64,000 bases of DNA, taken from an uncultured Alphaproteobacteria bacterium. GTDB lineage: Bacteria; Pseudomonadota; Alphaproteobacteria; CAWJRW01. The stretch covers positions 1,544,910 through 1,608,909 of the forward strand of contig CAWJRW010000006.1 of the NCBI GenBank assembly GCA_963845385.1, read 5' to 3'. A program made the translations under genes and the position numbers. The notes under the pieces are model-generated. The model saw nothing but the letters and a program-made list of their open reading frames with translations. It had not been told where the DNA came from and did not search any database. Of the stretch, positions 24,748 through 37,862 are shown piece by piece; positions within the stretch are counted from its first letter, which is position 1, and every line of letters begins with the position of its first letter.

Positions 24748-25680
24748 TTACTTCGCCGGCAGGAAATTGAGGAGCGAGATGGTCTGCAATTGCGACAGGA
24801 TATAAGTCGCGGCTTGGCTTGCCACCTGATCCTGATTCAAGCGCGACACGGCGTCGGCCATGTCCACATCTTCGATGTCGGAGATGAAGCCCTTGATGAA
24901 CACGCTCGTCTGCTCGTGGACTTCGGTGACGCTTTCCACCTGCTGCTGATACTGGCCGTTGCGCGCCACGATGTTGTTCAAGTCCTGTGACACGGTCTTG
25001 AGCGTCGGCAAGATCCCCTGAAGGAACGCTTGCTGTTGCGGGGTGAGCTGGTCCGAGAAGGGGCCGTCTACGCCGGCATTGAAGTCCGCGATGCTCTTCA
25101 AAGCCGTCATGAGCGGCTCGCCGATCTCGTCGGCGAGGAAGGTGTAGTTGAGAGTCTGGCCGGTATCGATCTCGACGCCTCGACGCTGCTGATCGTTGGT
25201 GAAGATCGTCGACGCCGAAGGCGCTGCCGAAAGATCGGCGAGGCTCGAGATATTCACCGGCGCAGTGTTGCCGCGCGAGCCCGCGAAAATATAGCTGCCG
25301 TCGACCTGGGCATTGAGCCCGGAGAGCGCTTGGCGGAAGACGCCGTCGACGGCCTCCATCAGCCCCAAGCCGGAATTGAGGCTCAAGGCGTCGAGCACGT
25401 TCTGGCGCAGCTGGCCCGCGGAGGAGGCGATCTGCTCCAGCTGAACGTTCTGATTTTCGAGCCGGCCGCCGAGCTCGGTCACCGTCTTCTGGAATTGCGC
25501 GATGCGCGTCTCGACGCGCTTGGCCGACAATAAGACGCCCGTATCCTTCGCCAGATCCTTGTAGGTCTGCCCGACCTTTCCCGTCGACACCTGGAGCTGG
25601 GTCTGGAAGGTGCGGGCATTGGTCTTGAGGAGCTCGCTCAAGAGCGTCTGCTGCTGGGAGAGGGTCGCGATGCGGGTCAT
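24748..25680 (-). CDS. flgL: Flagellar hook-associated protein 3 (FlgL)
   Basis: Intact 310-aa ORF directly downstream of flgK. Flagellin-like termini (MTRIATLSQQQTLLSELL... and ...QVASQAATYILSQLQTISLLNFL). Confidence 0.8.
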   Translation of the reverse strand: MTRIATLSQQQTLLSELLKTNARTFQTQLQVSTGKVGQTYKDLAKDTGVLLSAKRVETRIAQFQKTVTELGGRLENQNVQLEQIASSAGQLRQNVLDALSLNSGLGLMEAVDGVFRQALSGLNAQVDGSYIFAGSRGNTAPVNISSLADLSAAPSASTIFTNDQQRRGVEIDTGQTLNYTFLADEIGEPLMTALKSIADFNAGVDGPFSDQLTPQQQAFLQGILPTLKTVSQDLNNIVARNGQYQQQVESVTEVHEQTSVFIKGFISDIEDVDMADAVSRLNQDQVASQAATYILSQLQTISLLNFLPAK

Positions 25681-25701: not shown

Positions 25702-27861
25702 TCAGACGGCGTTGAGCAGCGCCTGGAAAAGGTCGTTCGAGGCTTGAATGAGACGCGCGGCGGCGTTGTAGGACTGCTGATACTGGATCATGTTCGCGAG
25801 CTCTTCGTCGAGATTGACGCCCTCGATCGCGGTCATGCGGTCGTTGATGTCCGCTTGCAGGGACTGGTTCTCGTCGCGCAAGGCGTCGGCTTGCGCCGCG
25901 AGATGTCCGGCGTCCGAAAGCACCGTGCCGGCATAGCTCGACAGCGTCGCCTGCAGATTGCCGAGATCGCCGGCGGCCGAAAAGCTGATGGCATTGTCTT
26001 GCACGGCCGAGAGCGCGAGCGCGCCGCGATTGTCGCCCGCGCCCAGCACCATGTCGCCCGGCGCGGTCGCGGGCGAAAGGTCGATCTGCGCCAGCGCGAG
26101 CTTCGACGGATCCGAAGCGATGCTCGCGCGCAGGCTCAAATTGCGTGCATGATCCATCTGCGCGTTGTCGCCGATGCCGAAAAGCTGCGTGAAGCTCTGC
26201 GCCGTGCCGCCGCGCGCGGTCGTGTCGTTCGCGACTTCGACGCGATAGCCCTGGAAGGCCGCCGTGGGCGTGGCGGTGAGTTGTCCGTTCGCGTCGAGAC
26301 TGAAGGTGAGATAGCCGCCGAGGCCGGTGCCCGCGGTGTTGAGGTCGTTCACGATGTCGCCGATGGTGCCGGCGCCGATCGTATAGGTGTAATCGATGGC
26401 GACCTGGCTGTTCGGGCCGCGCAGCACGAGCTCGAAAGTCTGGCCGGGCGTGAAGCCGTGGGCGTCGGCCGCGCTGAGCCCCGTGTCGAAGGTCGAGGGC
26501 ATCGAGGCCTGGAAGAGATCGTTGAGACCGAAGAAGTGCGCGAACCCCCGGCCGCCGCGGTCGCTGGCGGTGGCGGCGTCCTGCACCACGGCCACCCCGT
26601 TCGCGGGCAGGGCCGCGTTGAGCGTCATCACGCCATTGGCAAAAGCGAGATTGCCGTCCGCGCCGAGGCCCGTGTTGATGGCCGCCACCATGTCGTCCAC
26701 GGTCGCGCCGCCGAAGGCCACCGGCCCGGCGCCATTGACGCTGTAAGTGCCGGCGTCGAAGTCCACATCGACGCGCCGCACGAGCGCGCCCGTCGAATCC
26801 GCGACCACGAACGTCGCCTTGCCCGTGAATCCGTAATCGTCGGTGCCGAGAAGCCCGGTGTTGCGGCCGGTGAGCGCGTTGGCGGCGGGGCTCGCCGCGT
26901 TCTCGTTGTGCGCGGCGTTGAGCGCGTCGGCGAAACGGCCGGCAAGCTCGCCGATCTCCTTGGCGAGAGCGGGCAAGACCTGGCTCCGCATGTTGAGGAG
27001 CCCGCGCAGCTTGCCGTCGCCGAGATGCGGCTCGAGCGCCGTGCCTTGCGGAACGAGCGAGCCGGTATTGGGATCGAGGCGGCGAATGACGATGGGCGCG
27101 AACATCGTCTGCGAGCTGATGGGCCCCGGCGGCGTGTAATCGAGCTGAAAGAGCTGCTCGGTGACGAGCGGCACGCCGTCCTGCGTCGTGACATAGAGCT
27201 TGCCGTTCGCCTGCTCGGCCGTGCGCACGTTCATGAGCTCGGCCAAAGCGCGCACGGCCTGGTCGCGCTGATCGCGCAAGCCGGCGGCATCGTTGCCGCT
27301 CAACACCTCGCGCTGGATCTCCGGATTGAGATTGTCGATGCGCTTCAGCGCCTCGTTGATGGTCGTGATGGTCGAAGTGACCTGCTGCTCGGTATCGGAG
27401 CGGATCGACTGGATGTGGTCGAACAGGCTCGAGAACATGTCGGCCGTGCCGCTGAGCGAGGTCAAGAGCGATTGGCGGCGGATGGTGGAGGTGGGATCGA
27501 TGGACAGATCGCTGATCGCGGCAAAGAGCTGATCGATGCGCCCGCTGAGCGAGCTGTTCTGATCCGGGCGTCCGAACAAGCCCTGAATGCTGTCGTGAAT
27601 CTGCGCCTCGGCGTCGTAGCGCGCCGCGGACGATGTCACCTTGAGCGACTCGCGCGCGAGAAACGTCGCCGCCGCCCGCCTGATCTCGGCGATCTGCACG
27701 CCGCCGGAGGTCGAGCCGTATTGGACCGGCTGCAACTCGATGATGCGCCGCTTGTAGCCCGGCGTGTTGACGTTGGCGATATTCGACGCAGTGGTGCCGA
27801 GCGCGGTCTGATTGGTCTGCAGCGCGGAAAGCGCGTTGGAAAGAATCGAGCCGACCGCCAT
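25702..27861 (-). CDS. flgK: Flagellar hook-associated protein 1 (FlgK)
   Basis: ORF 25702..28038(-) trimmed to MAVGSILSNALSALQTNQTALGTTASNIANVNTPGYKRR (rod/hook N-terminal consensus). C-terminus EELANMIQYQQSYNAAARLIQASNDLFQALLNAV. Confidence 0.9.
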   Translation of the reverse strand: MAVGSILSNALSALQTNQTALGTTASNIANVNTPGYKRRIIELQPVQYGSTSGGVQIAEIRRAAATFLARESLKVTSSAARYDAEAQIHDSIQGLFGRPDQNSSLSGRIDQLFAAISDLSIDPTSTIRRQSLLTSLSGTADMFSSLFDHIQSIRSDTEQQVTSTITTINEALKRIDNLNPEIQREVLSGNDAAGLRDQRDQAVRALAELMNVRTAEQANGKLYVTTQDGVPLVTEQLFQLDYTPPGPISSQTMFAPIVIRRLDPNTGSLVPQGTALEPHLGDGKLRGLLNMRSQVLPALAKEIGELAGRFADALNAAHNENAASPAANALTGRNTGLLGTDDYGFTGKATFVVADSTGALVRRVDVDFDAGTYSVNGAGPVAFGGATVDDMVAAINTGLGADGNLAFANGVMTLNAALPANGVAVVQDAATASDRGGRGFAHFFGLNDLFQASMPSTFDTGLSAADAHGFTPGQTFELVLRGPNSQVAIDYTYTIGAGTIGDIVNDLNTAGTGLGGYLTFSLDANGQLTATPTAAFQGYRVEVANDTTARGGTAQSFTQLFGIGDNAQMDHARNLSLRASIASDPSKLALAQIDLSPATAPGDMVLGAGDNRGALALSAVQDNAISFSAAGDLGNLQATLSSYAGTVLSDAGHLAAQADALRDENQSLQADINDRMTAIEGVNLDEELANMIQYQQSYNAAARLIQASNDLFQALLNAV

Positions 27862-27930
27862 GAGCGTACCCGCGTCTCTTCGCAAAACCGCCTTGGCCGG
27901 ACGAAGAACAGACCAAGTCGAAAGCTTGCG

Positions 27931-27946
27931 TGCAAGTGAAGTGCCA
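27931..27946 (-). promoter_or_regulatory. Sigma-54 (-24/-12) promoter for flgK-flgL
   Basis: Minus strand reads TGGCAC-TTCAC-TTGCA, a perfect match to TGGCAC-N5-TTGCW. The -12 element lies about 70 nt upstream of the flgK ATG. Confidence 0.7.
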
Positions 27947-28032
27947 GGGCCGCGACGCCGAAATGCCGCGTATTTTCGCGACTTTTTCGGCGCGCCGCGC
28001 GCGCCTCGAACGGAAGTTTTGGCCCTGGCGCG

Positions 28033-28047
28033 CGGCAAGACTTGCCG
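28033..28047. promoter_or_regulatory. Perfect 15-bp palindrome CGGCAAG-A-CTTGCCG: candidate FlbD (ftr-like) enhancer shared by the divergent sigma-54 promoters
   Basis: Lies roughly 85-90 bp upstream of each sigma-54 promoter (27946 on the minus strand, 28135 on the plus strand). Dyad symmetry fits a dimeric bEBP site, and flbD is encoded 8 kb away. Confidence 0.5.
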
Positions 28048-28134
28048 GGCGCGAACGAAACCGCGCGCGCTCGAGGATCGGTGCGTCGCGCGAATTCGCG
28101 CTCGAATTCAAGAGCTTCGCGCCGTCGCCCGGCG

Positions 28135-28150
28135 TGGCGCGCGGCTTGCT
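28135..28150 (+). promoter_or_regulatory. Sigma-54 (-24/-12) promoter for fliK-flgD-flgE
   Basis: TGGCGC-GCGGC-TTGCT, one mismatch to TGGCAC-N5-TTGCW. Ends 38 nt upstream of the fliK ATG at 28188. Confidence 0.65.
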
Positions 28151-28187
28151 TCACGCCTTCCGGCGCAATCTTGCGCGCAGAGGCACC

Positions 28188-29726
28188 ATGTCCGAGACGG
28201 CGCAGCTTCTCAATCTTCTGGTCGGCGTGTCAGCAGGCACGACCGCGCCGAAGGCCGCGCATGCCGGTCAGGCCAAGGCGGGCGCCTCGGCCCCCGACGG
28301 ATTTCTCGCGCTGCTCGCGCTCGCCGGCGCCGATGCCAGCGCGAGCGCGGATGCGCTCGCCGCCTCGCTCAAGTCGAACGCCGGTGAAGCGCAGGCGAAC
28401 GGCCTTCCCGCGCCCGCGATTTCGCAAAGCGCCAAGGACAAAGAGACGCCTGTCCAACCCGGCTCATCCGAGAAAACAGAGGCACAGGCGCAAGCCGACG
28501 GCGCCGCTGCCCAATCTCTTCTCCTCTTGTCCTCGTCCGCAACGAGCGAAGGACTTCCGGCCTTGCTCGCGCCGAATGCATCGCCCGAGACGAGCCGCCC
28601 GAGCGCGGAAGACACCGACGGCGCCGCATCCATGACAGCGCGCTCGGCAGATGCGGAGCTTCTTGCTAGCGCACAGCCCAAGCTCGCAGCGCCGACGCCG
28701 CCGCCCGGCCTGCCGCAAGCAAGCGCAACGAGCGACTCCGCTTCGGCAAGCAACACCGCGCCGGGCTCTGCGCCGCCGGCCGCAAATGCCGTCGCAACGG
28801 AAGCCGCGGCGCAAGTTGGCGCCGATCTCGCTTCCAGCGCCAAAGCCGAAGCGCTCGCAGCCGCGACCGAAGCACCAAAGCCCGCGCCGACGCGCGAAGC
28901 CATCGTCAATGCCTCGCTCACAGGCGTCGCGGGCGCGTTGCTCGGCGAGAAGCCCACGTCTTCCGGCACGAAGAGCGCAGCCCAGGCGGACAAGTCCGAG
29001 CCGAAACCTGCCGAGACGCCGCGCGCGGCGCCTCCCGCGCCTCAGAGCGCCGGTCCGCGCAACGCCGCCCCAGAGCCCGCGGCCGAAAAGACGCCTCAGG
29101 CCTCGGCACCGGCGCCGTCCGACGACATGGCCCTGCAGAGCAATACGGCGCGCGCCGCGTCCAACGCCAATCTTGCCTCGCCCCACGAGCAGGCGCCGAG
29201 CCTAGACAGCGCAGCACCTTCGCAAGCTCTCGCCTACACGCAGGCGCAAGGCGCTCATTCCGCGGTGCCCGTGATCGTGCTGCGCGCGGCGCAAAGCGCG
29301 CAGGGACCCGCGCTGCCGCAGGATCGCATCGCGCTCGCCATCGTGCGCCAGCTCGAGGCCGGCGTGAGCCGCTTCGAGATCCGTCTCGACCCGCCCGAGC
29401 TCGGACGCATCGACGTCAAGATGAGCCTGCGCGCGGACGGCCATGTGAGCGCGCAGCTCACCGCCGACCGGCCCGACACGCTCGAGCTTCTGCAGCGCGA
29501 CGCGCGCGTGCTCCAGCGCGCGCTCAGCGATGCGGGCCTCACCATGGACTCGGGCTCGCTCTCCTTCGGCTTGCGCGACCGGGGCGGGCGCCAGGTCTTC
29601 GACCAGGACGAAGCGTCGCCGTCGATCGCCGCGGTCGATGCGGAAGACGAGACCGCGGAGGCGTTGGCTTACGGCATTCCGCTCCTGGCAAGCCTCGAGC
29701 CCGGACGCGTCGACTTACGGGTTTAG
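28188..29726 (+). CDS. fliK: Flagellar hook-length control protein FliK
   Basis: ORF 27930..29726(+) trimmed to MSETAQLLNLL. Long Ala/Pro/Ser-rich spacer, then a C-terminal Flg_hook-type domain (FEIRLDPPELGRIDVKMSLRADGHVSAQLTADRPDTLELLQRDARVLQRAL). Confidence 0.8.
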   Translation: MSETAQLLNLLVGVSAGTTAPKAAHAGQAKAGASAPDGFLALLALAGADASASADALAASLKSNAGEAQANGLPAPAISQSAKDKETPVQPGSSEKTEAQAQADGAAAQSLLLLSSSATSEGLPALLAPNASPETSRPSAEDTDGAASMTARSADAELLASAQPKLAAPTPPPGLPQASATSDSASASNTAPGSAPPAANAVATEAAAQVGADLASSAKAEALAAATEAPKPAPTREAIVNASLTGVAGALLGEKPTSSGTKSAAQADKSEPKPAETPRAAPPAPQSAGPRNAAPEPAAEKTPQASAPAPSDDMALQSNTARAASNANLASPHEQAPSLDSAAPSQALAYTQAQGAHSAVPVIVLRAAQSAQGPALPQDRIALAIVRQLEAGVSRFEIRLDPPELGRIDVKMSLRADGHVSAQLTADRPDTLELLQRDARVLQRALSDAGLTMDSGSLSFGLRDRGGRQVFDQDEASPSIAAVDAEDETAEALAYGIPLLASLEPGRVDLRV

Positions 29727-29765: not shown

Positions 29766-30458
29766 ATGGCCATCGATCCCATCTCGAGCAGCGCCCTTGT
29801 GCCCCCGGCCGCCTCGGCCCTGAGCGGCAACGCGGCCGCCGGTGCCTCATCGCTTGCGGACAATTTCAATACGTTTCTCATCTTGCTCACGACGCAGCTC
29901 AAAAATCAGGACCCGCTGTCGCCGATGGATTCGAGCGAGTTCACCCAACAGCTCGTTCAATTCTCGTCCGTCGAGCAGCAGATTCACGCCAACAAGAATC
30001 TCGAGAACTTGATCGCGCTGCAAAAGGCGGGCGCCGGCGCCGCGGCCGTCGGCTATATCGGCCGCGAAGTCACCGCTGAAACCGACACCGCCGCGCTCAA
30101 GGACGGCCATGCCTCCTGGAGCTACGCGCTCGACGGCAATGCGGAGGAGACGAGCATCCTCATCAAGGACCAGACCGGAAAAGTGGTTGCGACGCGCAGC
30201 GGCGAGACCGGCATCGGCAAGCACGTCTTCACGTGGGACGGTCTCAACAATATGGGCCAGCCCATGCCGGACGGCGCCTACACCGTCGAGATGAGCGCCA
30301 GCGCCGCGGGCGGCACGCCGGTCACGGTCGTCACCGGGATCACGGGCATCGTGACGGGCGTGGTCTTGACCGGCGACGAGCCCGAGCTCGCCGTCGACGG
30401 CGTCACCGTGAAGTTGAGCGACATTCTCTCGGTCAGCGACAGGACGACCTCGAGCTGA
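29766..30458 (+). CDS. flgD: Flagellar hook assembly/capping protein FlgD
   Basis: Intact ORF. FLILLTTQLKNQDPLSPMDSSEFTQQLVQFSSVEQQI is the FlgD signature. Confidence 0.9.
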   Translation: MAIDPISSSALVPPAASALSGNAAAGASSLADNFNTFLILLTTQLKNQDPLSPMDSSEFTQQLVQFSSVEQQIHANKNLENLIALQKAGAGAAAVGYIGREVTAETDTAALKDGHASWSYALDGNAEETSILIKDQTGKVVATRSGETGIGKHVFTWDGLNNMGQPMPDGAYTVEMSASAAGGTPVTVVTGITGIVTGVVLTGDEPELAVDGVTVKLSDILSVSDRTTSS

Positions 30459-30558: not shown

Positions 30559-31936
30559 ATGAGCATCTATGGTGCTCTCTTTGCCGGCGTGTCGGGGCTT
30601 TCGGCCAATTCGGTCGCGCTCGGCATCATTTCCGACAACATCGCCAACGTGAACACGGTGGGCTACAAGCGCCACCAGTCGAGCTTCTCGACGCTGGTCA
30701 CGGGCGCGGGCTCGTCGACCTTCTCGCCCGGCGGCGTGCGTGCCGGCAACCGGCTGCTCATGGACAATCAGGGCCTGATCCTGGGCTCGGAATCGCCCAC
30801 CGATCTCGCCATCTCGGGCGACGGCTTCTTCGTCATCTTCGGCGGCGCCGACGACGAGCGCGGCCAACACGCCCGTGCTCTACACGCGCGCGGGCTCGTT
30901 CGTGAAGGACGCGAGCGGCTTCCTGCGCAACGCCGCGGGCTATTATCTCTTGGGCTGGCCCGTCGCCTCGGACGGCAGCGTGCCCGCAACGCCCTCCGAT
31001 CTCACGCAGCTGCAGAGCCTCAATCTCGAGTCGATCGGCGGCACGGCCGAGCCCACGACCAACGTCACGCTCAACGCCAATCTGCAGGCAAGCCAGGCCG
31101 TCTCGGTCCAGGAGGCGACCTACGATCCCACCGCCTCTGGGACCAACATGGCGTCCGGTGGAGTGACGCCGGATTTCGAAAGCTCGATCCAGATCTTCGA
31201 CTGCCAGGGCGGCTTCCGCACGCTCACCTTGAGCCTGCTCAAGAGCGCGACGCCCAATCTGTGGCACGCCGAGCTCCATGTCGTGCCGCCGCCGATGTCA
31301 CGACGGGTGCGGGCCTCATCGACGGCCAGGTCGCCATGGGCACGATCGCTTTCACGACAAGCGGTCTTTTGGACATGGCGGCGACTTCACCGTCGCTGCT
31401 CAACGTCGACTTCCTGGCCTCGGGTGCGGCACCGGGCGCTGGCGAGGTGGCCTGGGATCACGAGCCTCGGCATCGGCGCGCAATCGGTGGCCATCAGCCT
31501 CGGCACGACAGGGAGCTTCACGCAATTCGACAGCCCCTCGAACCTCATCTCCTATCAAGTGAACGGTGCGGTGTTCGGCGGGCTCGCCGGCGTGCGCGTG
31601 GACGAAAAGGGCTTCGTCACGGCGCTGTTCGACAACGGCGTGCAACGGAAGCATTTACCAAATCCCCGTCGCCACCTTCATCAATCCCGCCGGCCTTCAG
31701 GCCGAGAACGGCAACGCCTATCTCGGTCACCAATGACAGCGGCTCCTTCAACCTCAAGATCCCGGGCGACGGCGGGCGCGGGCAAGATCTCGGCCTCCTC
31801 GCTCGAAAGCTCGACGGTCGACATCGCGGAGGAGTTCACGGGGCTTATTACAACGCAACGCGCCTATTCAGCGGCAACACGTATTATTACGACAGCAGAT
31901 GAAATGTTGAATGAGCTTATACAGACGCGCCGGTAA
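30559..31936 (+). pseudogene. flgE: Flagellar hook protein FlgE; at least six frame breaks (about 30855, 31290, 31455, 31655, 31722, 31775)
   Basis: MSIYGALFAGVSGLSANSVALGIISDNIANVNTVGYK... | ...TPVLYTRAGSFVKDASGFLRN... | AADVTTGAGLIDGQ... | ITSLGIGAQS... | YQIPVATFINPAGLQAENGNAYL | VTNDSGSFNL | ...SSLESSTVDIAEEFTGLITTQRAYSAATRIITTADEMLNELIQTRR. Segments alternate among all three frames. Confidence 0.9.
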
Positions 31937-31943
31937 TACTTTA

Positions 31944-31982
31944 CTCCGGGCAATTCTACTCAGAATTGCCCGGAGTTTTATT
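31944..31982 (+). terminator. Rho-independent terminator after flgE
   Basis: Perfect 13-bp stem CTCCGGGCAATTC / GAATTGCCCGGAG with a 6-nt loop, followed by TTTTATT. Confidence 0.8.
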
Positions 31983-32374: not shown

Positions 32375-32599
32375 GCGACATTAACTGACGCGACGACAAT
32401 GGACGTTGCGTCCAATGCGTGTGCGCGATTTCGGCACAGATGCGCGCGAACTTGCATTTTTCCTTGTCGCGTTAAATCAACTTTTACAGGGCTCCGGGTA
32501 ATTTTTGCCTAGCCTCGGCGTACGCGCTGGAGCCTCGCCGCCGGCCCTGAGTTTAGGTCACGGGGCGTTCCCGTAATCGGCTAACGCGAACGAGCAGCT

Positions 32600-36448: not shown

Positions 36449-36451
36449 ATC

Positions 36452-37862
<1,411 letters not shown>

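Follow-up and report, generated by a model that had tools for sequence, protein, structure and literature searches.

A perfect dyad, predicted to be an FlbD-type enhancer, midway between divergent sigma-54 promoter boxes in the flgK/fliK gap of an uncultured alphaproteobacterium

The window analyzed here is a 64,000-nucleotide stretch from the 3.09-Mb genome (64% G+C) of an uncultured alphaproteobacterium, and within it the flagellar genes flgK and fliK are transcribed away from each other. The intergenic gap between them, from the flgK ATG (27861, minus strand) to the fliK ATG (28188), measures 326 bp. A preliminary description of this DNA had named the flanking genes; NCBIfam models bore out flgK, flgL, flgD and flgE, and the Pfam Flg_hook model bore out FliK (Table 1). 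The flgK start is sound, because FlgK orthologs align from residue 1. Genes flgK, flgL, fliK, flgD, fliX, and flgI are intact in the assembly, and in the first frame of flgE the NCBIfam FlgE models matched the N-terminus only. No sigma-70-like promoter or terminator was found in the flgK/fliK gap, and an Rfam search of positions 27600–28500 returned no match. Just 3′ of flgE, at 31948–31975, an inverted repeat with a 12-bp stem (CCGGGCAATTCT-ACTC-AGAATTGCCCGG) runs into a T-rich tract; it probably serves the fliK-flgD-flgE operon as an intrinsic terminator, and sciP (DUF1153) comes after it.

Table 1. Genes and predicted control elements at and near the flgK/fliK intergenic gap (window coordinates; a dot marks features given without strand).
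Feature	Position	Strand	Remarks
flgL, hook-associated protein 3	24748..25680	-	Second gene of the leftward operon; NCBIfam flagellin/FlgL models
flgK, hook-associated protein 1	25702..27861	-	719 aa; TIGR02492 FlgK, 290 bits; frame intact, single-frame in the frame plot
Sigma-54 -24/-12 promoter of flgKL (predicted)	27946 to 27931	-	TGGCACTTCACTTGCA; perfect TGGCAC-N5-TTGCA
AT-richer patch with phased A/T tracts	27962..27991	.	Minus-strand reading cgAAAAAgtcgcgAAAAtacg; two A-tracts about 11 bp apart
FlbD-type (ftr-like) enhancer dyad (predicted)	28031..28049	.	cgCGGCAAGACTTGCCGgg; core 28033-28047, centre 28040
IHF-like site	28106..28118	+	ATTCAAGAGCTTC; differs from WATCAANNNNTTR at two positions; centre 24 bp before the fliK GG
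Sigma-54 -24/-12 promoter of fliK-flgD-flgE (predicted)	28135-28150	+	TGGCGCGCGGCTTGCT; one mismatch
fliK, hook-length control protein	28188..29726	+	Pfam Flg_hook, E=1.9e-18
flgD, hook assembly protein	29766..30458	+	NCBIfam FlgD models
flgE, hook protein	30559..31936	+	Frame switch near 30880 (frame plot)
flbD, sigma-54 activator	36449..37862 (about)	+	Last gene of the fliF operon, after fliF, fliG and fliN; several frame breaks

Two outward-facing sigma-54 boxes had been proposed in the gap, and direct reading together with a pattern search located both exactly where they had been placed. Both lie in non-coding DNA and face gene starts at leader distance, and in each the GG and GC doublets have a spacing of exactly 10 bp. 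The flgK box is one of 6 perfect TGGCAC-N5-TTGCW sites in the genome (3.09 Mb, both strands), in which boxes with at most one mismatch number 58. Predicted transcription starts fall near 27920 for flgKL (leader of about 59 nt) and near 28161 for the fliK operon (leader of about 27 nt, with an AGAGG ribosome-binding site at 28179–28183). The sigma factor itself is encoded on contig C2, as an open frame of 516 aa with a PF04552 match of 230 bits (rpoN). An 11-mer, TGGCGCGCGGC, is found twice in the gap, once at 28135–28145, where it makes up the -24 portion of the fliK box, and once at 28026–28036, where it abuts the left half of the central dyad; this second copy is not a promoter, because it has no TTGC at the correct spacing.

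Between the two boxes lies the palindrome CGGCAAGaCTTGCCG (28033–28047, read as CGGCAAGACTTGCCG), a perfect dyad of the form 7-N1-7. This 15-bp element was confirmed by direct reading and pattern search, and its distance from each box, first estimated at about 85–90 bp, measured 87 and 88 bp edge to edge. Measured from the dyad centre, the flgK GG is 95 bp and the fliK GG 96 bp away, and each predicted start lies about 120 bp downstream of that centre, with the exact spacings liable to be off by a base or two given the indels in rpoB and elsewhere in this assembly (see below). The palindrome cannot act as an RNA hairpin, because the loop would be a single base. The full palindrome CGGCAAGNCTTGCCG occurs once in the genome, and the CGGCA-N5-TGCCG form at 21 sites. 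By chance, all three motifs would fall together in a given 326-bp gap with a probability of about 2e-9, which rises to about 6e-6 across 3000 gaps.

The same kind of dyad recurs at other flagellar promoters of this genome. With flagellar genes located by Pfam models, sigma-54 boxes were found upstream of both flagellins, of flgF-flgG-flgA-flgH, and of flgI, each with CGGCA-N5-TGCCG-type dyads 70–155 bp upstream. The flgI and flgF promoters have one perfect dyad each (102 and 85 bp from the GG, respectively), flagellin 1 has three one-mismatch dyads (102, 134, and 154 bp), and flagellin 2 has two weaker ones (107 and 127 bp). Genome-wide there are 463 dyads with at most one mismatch; the four 180-bp windows upstream of these four other flagellar boxes held 5, against 0.11 expected (P ~1e-7). 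We built a position profile (consensus CCCGGCAAAATTTGCCGGG) solely from the dyads of the other flagellar promoters, leaving out the one between flgK and fliK. By this profile the flgK/fliK dyad scored 21.5 bits, the top site in the 3.09-Mb genome. All 535 sigma-54-like boxes were then ranked by the best dyad 30–230 bp upstream of each, and the top six were those of fliK, flgK, flagellin 1, flgF, a small open reading frame (C6:1888120), and flgI, with flagellin 2 ninth. The genome-wide scan for dyads next to GG-N10-GC boxes that the preliminary description had put forward thus yields a flagellar regulon. Proximal dyads at the other promoters lie 69–107 bp from the GG, a range that takes in the 95 and 96 bp measured in the gap.

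Elsewhere in the gap and its leaders no further site reached 9 bits with this profile. A second dyad candidate at 28011–28025 was rejected at 3.4 bits. The best remaining score, 8.6 bits, belonged to the palindrome GCGCAATCTTGCGC (28163–28176), which follows the predicted start and precedes the ribosome-binding site in the putative fliK leader; as RNA it would form a 5-bp hairpin, no stabler than shuffled sequence (z = 0.76).

Two of the other dyad-bearing regions are themselves divergent, flgI being divergent from fliX and flgFGAH from fliLM, with dyads between each pair. Both pairings presumably match the Caulobacter gene order, and the dyad sequence is one that we take to be the Caulobacter ftr element. 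Dyads are also present at class II promoters (fliX, fliL, and fliF). Upstream of fliF, the region 32472–32512 contains a CtrA-type box, TTAAATCAACTTTTAC (32472–32487, one mismatch to TTAA-N7-TTAAC), followed after 8 bp by the dyad-like CCGGGTAATTTTTGCCTAG (14.2 bits). By analogy with ftr4 at Caulobacter fliF, the pair resembles a class II promoter carrying a site for repression by FlbD. A rod gene of the flgB/C type is preceded, at a distance of about 500 bp, by the sequence AGGCAAGAATTGCCT (C6:267002–267016), which has no sigma-54 box close by; here too FlbD may bind at a class II promoter. The three dyads of flagellin 1 (C6:230761–230827) have spacings of 20 and 32 bp, and the two of flagellin 2 are 20 bp apart; with several dyads each, the late (filament) genes would have multi-site enhancers, in contrast to the single dyad of the flgK/fliK gap.

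Away from the flagellar clusters, all the elements of the regulon signature occur together at C6:1888105–1888200: the sigma-54 box TGGCCCGGCCTTTGCA, a site that fits the IHF consensus perfectly (AATCAAGGACTTG), and, 69 bp before the GG, a dyad scoring 19 bits. The small open reading frame behind this promoter had no Pfam match, and an Abhydrolase_3 esterase comes next; the promoter is possibly an unrecognised FlbD target. Another high-scoring dyad, at C6:2097426, was taken as a chance occurrence, as coding sequence surrounds it and there is no sigma-54 box in its vicinity.

The preliminary description had also pointed to AT-richer patches between the dyad and each promoter as possible IHF-like bending sites. 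The patches are real (27962–27991 and 28092–28121, 50–55% AT against about 34% overall), and an IHF-like match was present in the one on the fliK side; a search for the IHF consensus in the flgK-side patch found none. With its phased A-tracts the flgK-side patch is a possible intrinsic bend. Taken alone, the fliK-side match is not significant. Across the regulon, 5 of 7 promoters have an IHF-like match centred 21–25 bp before the GG (P from 2e-7 to 4e-4, by the background assumed); these matches include the perfect site mentioned above and, at flgF, AATCAAGAGCTTC, which is near-identical to the fliK-side site. Among the relatives surveyed below, fliK-side IHF-like sites cluster 13–38 bp upstream of the GG and flgK-side ones are scattered. 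Both subunit genes, ihfA and ihfB, are present in the genome, with matches above curated cut-offs.

That FlbD is encoded in the same cluster was borne out by domain matches and by a conserved helix-turn-helix (HTH), with the gene frame-broken in the assembly. PF00158 matched in two frames, Sigma54_activat and HTH_8 domains were recognised, and a receiver domain was not detected in the domain search of these broken frames. The HTH segment is 81–90% identical to that of intact orthologs of 456–483 aa in five genomes from four families, and in 4 of the 5 the ortholog lies on the flgK contig, 9–11 kb from flgK. In the same five genomes FlgK is only 39–54% identical, and the next-best activator HTH reaches 33–40%. 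Such conservation of the FlbD HTH would explain that of the dyad. The genome also encodes fliX.

A regulator other than FlbD might bind the dyad, such as NtrC, NtrX, a third activator encoded at C6:1406971, or a repressor. At least three further sigma-54 activators are encoded in the genome, and both FlbD binding and the likeness of the dyad to ftr are presumed here. Even so we rate another regulator as very improbable, because nearly all the sigma-54 promoters that the dyad marks are flagellar, because it is also found at the class II promoters of fliX, fliL, and fliF, where FlbD is known to act as a repressor in Caulobacter, and because the HTH of the sole activator in the flagellar cluster is conserved along with the motif across families, far above the next-best one.

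Frame breaks are dense from 30.8 to 42.2 kb of the window, affecting flgE, fliF, fliG, and flbD, and both flbD and fliG change frame repeatedly. Read as pseudogenes, flbD, fliF, fliG, and flgE would suggest a decaying flagellar regulon whose promoters and dyad are relics out of use. The essential gene rpoB (C6:453400–457400) is broken in the same way, however, with at least two frame switches (rpoC, flgK, and flgL are clean), and the in-frame pieces of flbD score 151 bits over 102 residues, like an intact protein, and retain the conserved HTH. We therefore read the breaks as indel errors of the assembly, clustered in blocks, rather than as old decay. Moreover the six flagellar genes listed above have unbroken frames and the cis motifs are perfect, so that we give the relic explanation very little credence. 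Genome completeness was scored at 73% despite an assembly of only 10 contigs, probably because marker genes are frame-broken as well.

We then looked at the layout of the gap in other genomes. Among the sampled genomes this one has no relative nearer than class level, and it is the sole representative of its order in the genome collection; in named records its best FlgK matches are from Hyphomonadaceae and Sphingomonas. From 400 sampled genomes of the class, 55 had a close FlgK and 40 were fetched for comparison. The divergent arrangement of fliK-flgD and flgK was present in 32 of these 40, and nearly all of the genomes with a divergent gap had a sigma-54 box on the flgK side and another on the fliK side, usually TGGCCC-N5-TTGCT. 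In Sphingomonas flgK directly follows the preceding gene, so these loci are uninformative. Dyads were about eight-fold denser in the gap than in the flanks (2.79 against 0.36 per kb; P 3e-20, a nominal value, as related genomes are not independent). The divergent layout, with its two boxes and its dyads, is shared by many alphaproteobacterial families.

Dyad layouts were surveyed with the profile at a threshold of 9 bits or more (background 0.29 per kb) in the 26 genomes with both boxes. Central dyads together with dyads in a long flgK leader were found in 15 genomes, central dyads only in 5 (this genome, G004, G188, G164, and G216), leader dyads only in 5, and none in 1. Genomes with a short flgK leader, this one included, lack leader dyads because there is no room for them. 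Enhancers for this class of activator usually consist of two adjacent dyads, as in the compact gaps of G004 and G188; the gap described here has one. The present genome is the extreme of the compact layout, with a single dyad that is perfect and equidistant from the two boxes.

This survey bears on whether the dyad acts in both directions. In most of the genomes the relatives' central dyads keep to a fixed 84–96 bp from the fliK GG, while the flgK box lies anywhere from 32 to 198 bp away, and in about 20 of the 26 genomes flgK has dyads of its own in a long leader. The dyad could thus be mainly a fliK element, with flgKL activated weakly from solution, through degenerate sites that went undetected, or without FlbD; that an IHF-like site is present on the fliK side alone would fit. 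In this genome, though, the flgK leader is short and free of dyads, no second site of 9 bits or more lies in the gap, and the two GG doublets stand within a base of each other in their distance from the dyad, both inside the range of the other promoters. The flgK box matches the consensus perfectly, and promoters of the sigma-54 type depend on an activator. Three other short-leader genomes (G004, G188, and G164) likewise have central dyads only. We regard an enhancer confined to the fliK operon, the chief rival reading, as unlikely, and, from the geometry and the lack of any other dyad in the gap, we lean toward a single dyad that serves both promoters.

Taken as a whole, the gap is best explained as a bidirectional class III flagellar control region with an FlbD dyad enhancer, a reading to which we would give a probability of roughly three in four. 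Sigma-54 RNA polymerase would form closed complexes at the two back-to-back -24/-12 promoters, one directed leftward to flgKL and the other rightward to fliK-flgD-flgE. FlbD, partnered by FliX, would bind the central palindrome, and its oligomers would reach either promoter by DNA looping, using ATP to open the complex. Looping toward fliK would probably be helped by IHF at the site just upstream of that promoter, and looping toward flgK, again probably, by the intrinsically bent A-tract patch. Considered separately, the assignment of the dyad as an FlbD enhancer and of both boxes as real promoters is very probably correct. The reading of the preliminary description is supported in silico, having come through each computational test able to refute it.

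A more speculative extension, which we consider possible but doubtful, is that a single perfect, equidistant FlbD dyad is a minimal bidirectional enhancer. The mode of bending would then differ between the arms, with IHF toward fliK and A-tracts toward flgK, and this would set how one oligomer is shared by, or alternates between, the two operons. If this were true, the gap would offer a natural one-site system in which to ask whether one oligomer can serve two promoters and whether they compete.

The feature is well supported and expected, and these data leave the known picture of sigma-54 or FlbD control unchanged. They extend the Caulobacter-type flagellar hierarchy, in which CtrA acts at class II promoters and FlbD/FliX act together with sigma-54 and IHF at class III/IV, with the same divergent gene pairs, to a lineage whose nearest relatives in the genome collection share only its class. 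They also provide an FlbD site profile that can be put to use, along with a map of the regulon in this genome, and the survey separates two flgK/fliK layouts, one with a long flgK leader bearing its own dyads and one with a compact gap and central dyads only. The compact single-dyad form would be a convenient natural template for the study of enhancer sharing between promoters.

The general model of sigma-54 activation is the NtrC-type enhancer, as at glnAp2. The flgK/fliK gap resembles it in having a palindrome for an activator with a Fis-type HTH about 100 bp upstream of a GG-N10-GC promoter, presumed to act by looping, and differs in the control of FlbD, which would come from FliX and flagellar assembly rather than a cognate kinase, and in the single dyad. 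Activator sites common to divergent sigma-54 promoters occur in Escherichia coli, at zraP/zraSR (ZraR) and hyc/hyp (FhlA). In the Desulfovibrio orp operons, OrpR and IHF are described as acting at divergent sigma-54 promoters with shared activator sites (PMC8359166). Like these three systems, the present gap has a predicted activator site, which would serve both sides, between back-to-back sigma-54 promoters. They differ from it in activator, signal, and site sequence, and typically have at least two adjacent sites, in contrast to the one dyad here.

The closest comparison is with Caulobacter, where class III/IV genes are described as requiring sigma-54, IHF, and FlbD, fliK as activated by FlbD, and FlbD as governed by FliX and flagellar assembly, not by a cognate kinase (PMC3096577). 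Caulobacter FlbD is further described as binding ftr motifs and repressing class II fliF (PMC3930126). The flaN (flgK) and flbG (fliK hook operon) units are, by the title of Mullin and Newton (1993), divergent sigma-54 transcription units with ftr elements, those of flaN (ftr2 and ftr3) lying downstream of its start, apart from the upstream ftr of flbG. Work on this locus also includes Mullin and Newton (1989), Gober and Shapiro (1990, 1992), and Benson et al. (1994) (as cited in PMC3096577 and PMC3930126). Our region shares with flaN/flbG the gene pair, its divergence, sigma-54 boxes on both sides, and dyads about 100 bp from the promoter; the two genomes also agree in an flbD that ends the fliF operon, in FliX as its partner, and in an IHF site on the hook-operon side, which here is a predicted IHF-like one. 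Unlike Caulobacter flaN, flgK here has a short leader without downstream dyads, and one perfect dyad stands midway; most of the relatives sampled resemble Caulobacter, with a long flgK leader that has its own dyads. The arrangement is thus of the known flaN/flbG type and not new in kind, and, judged by its sequence, the region corresponds to the flaN/flbG control region of Caulobacter, here in a deep-branching lineage and in compact form with a single dyad.
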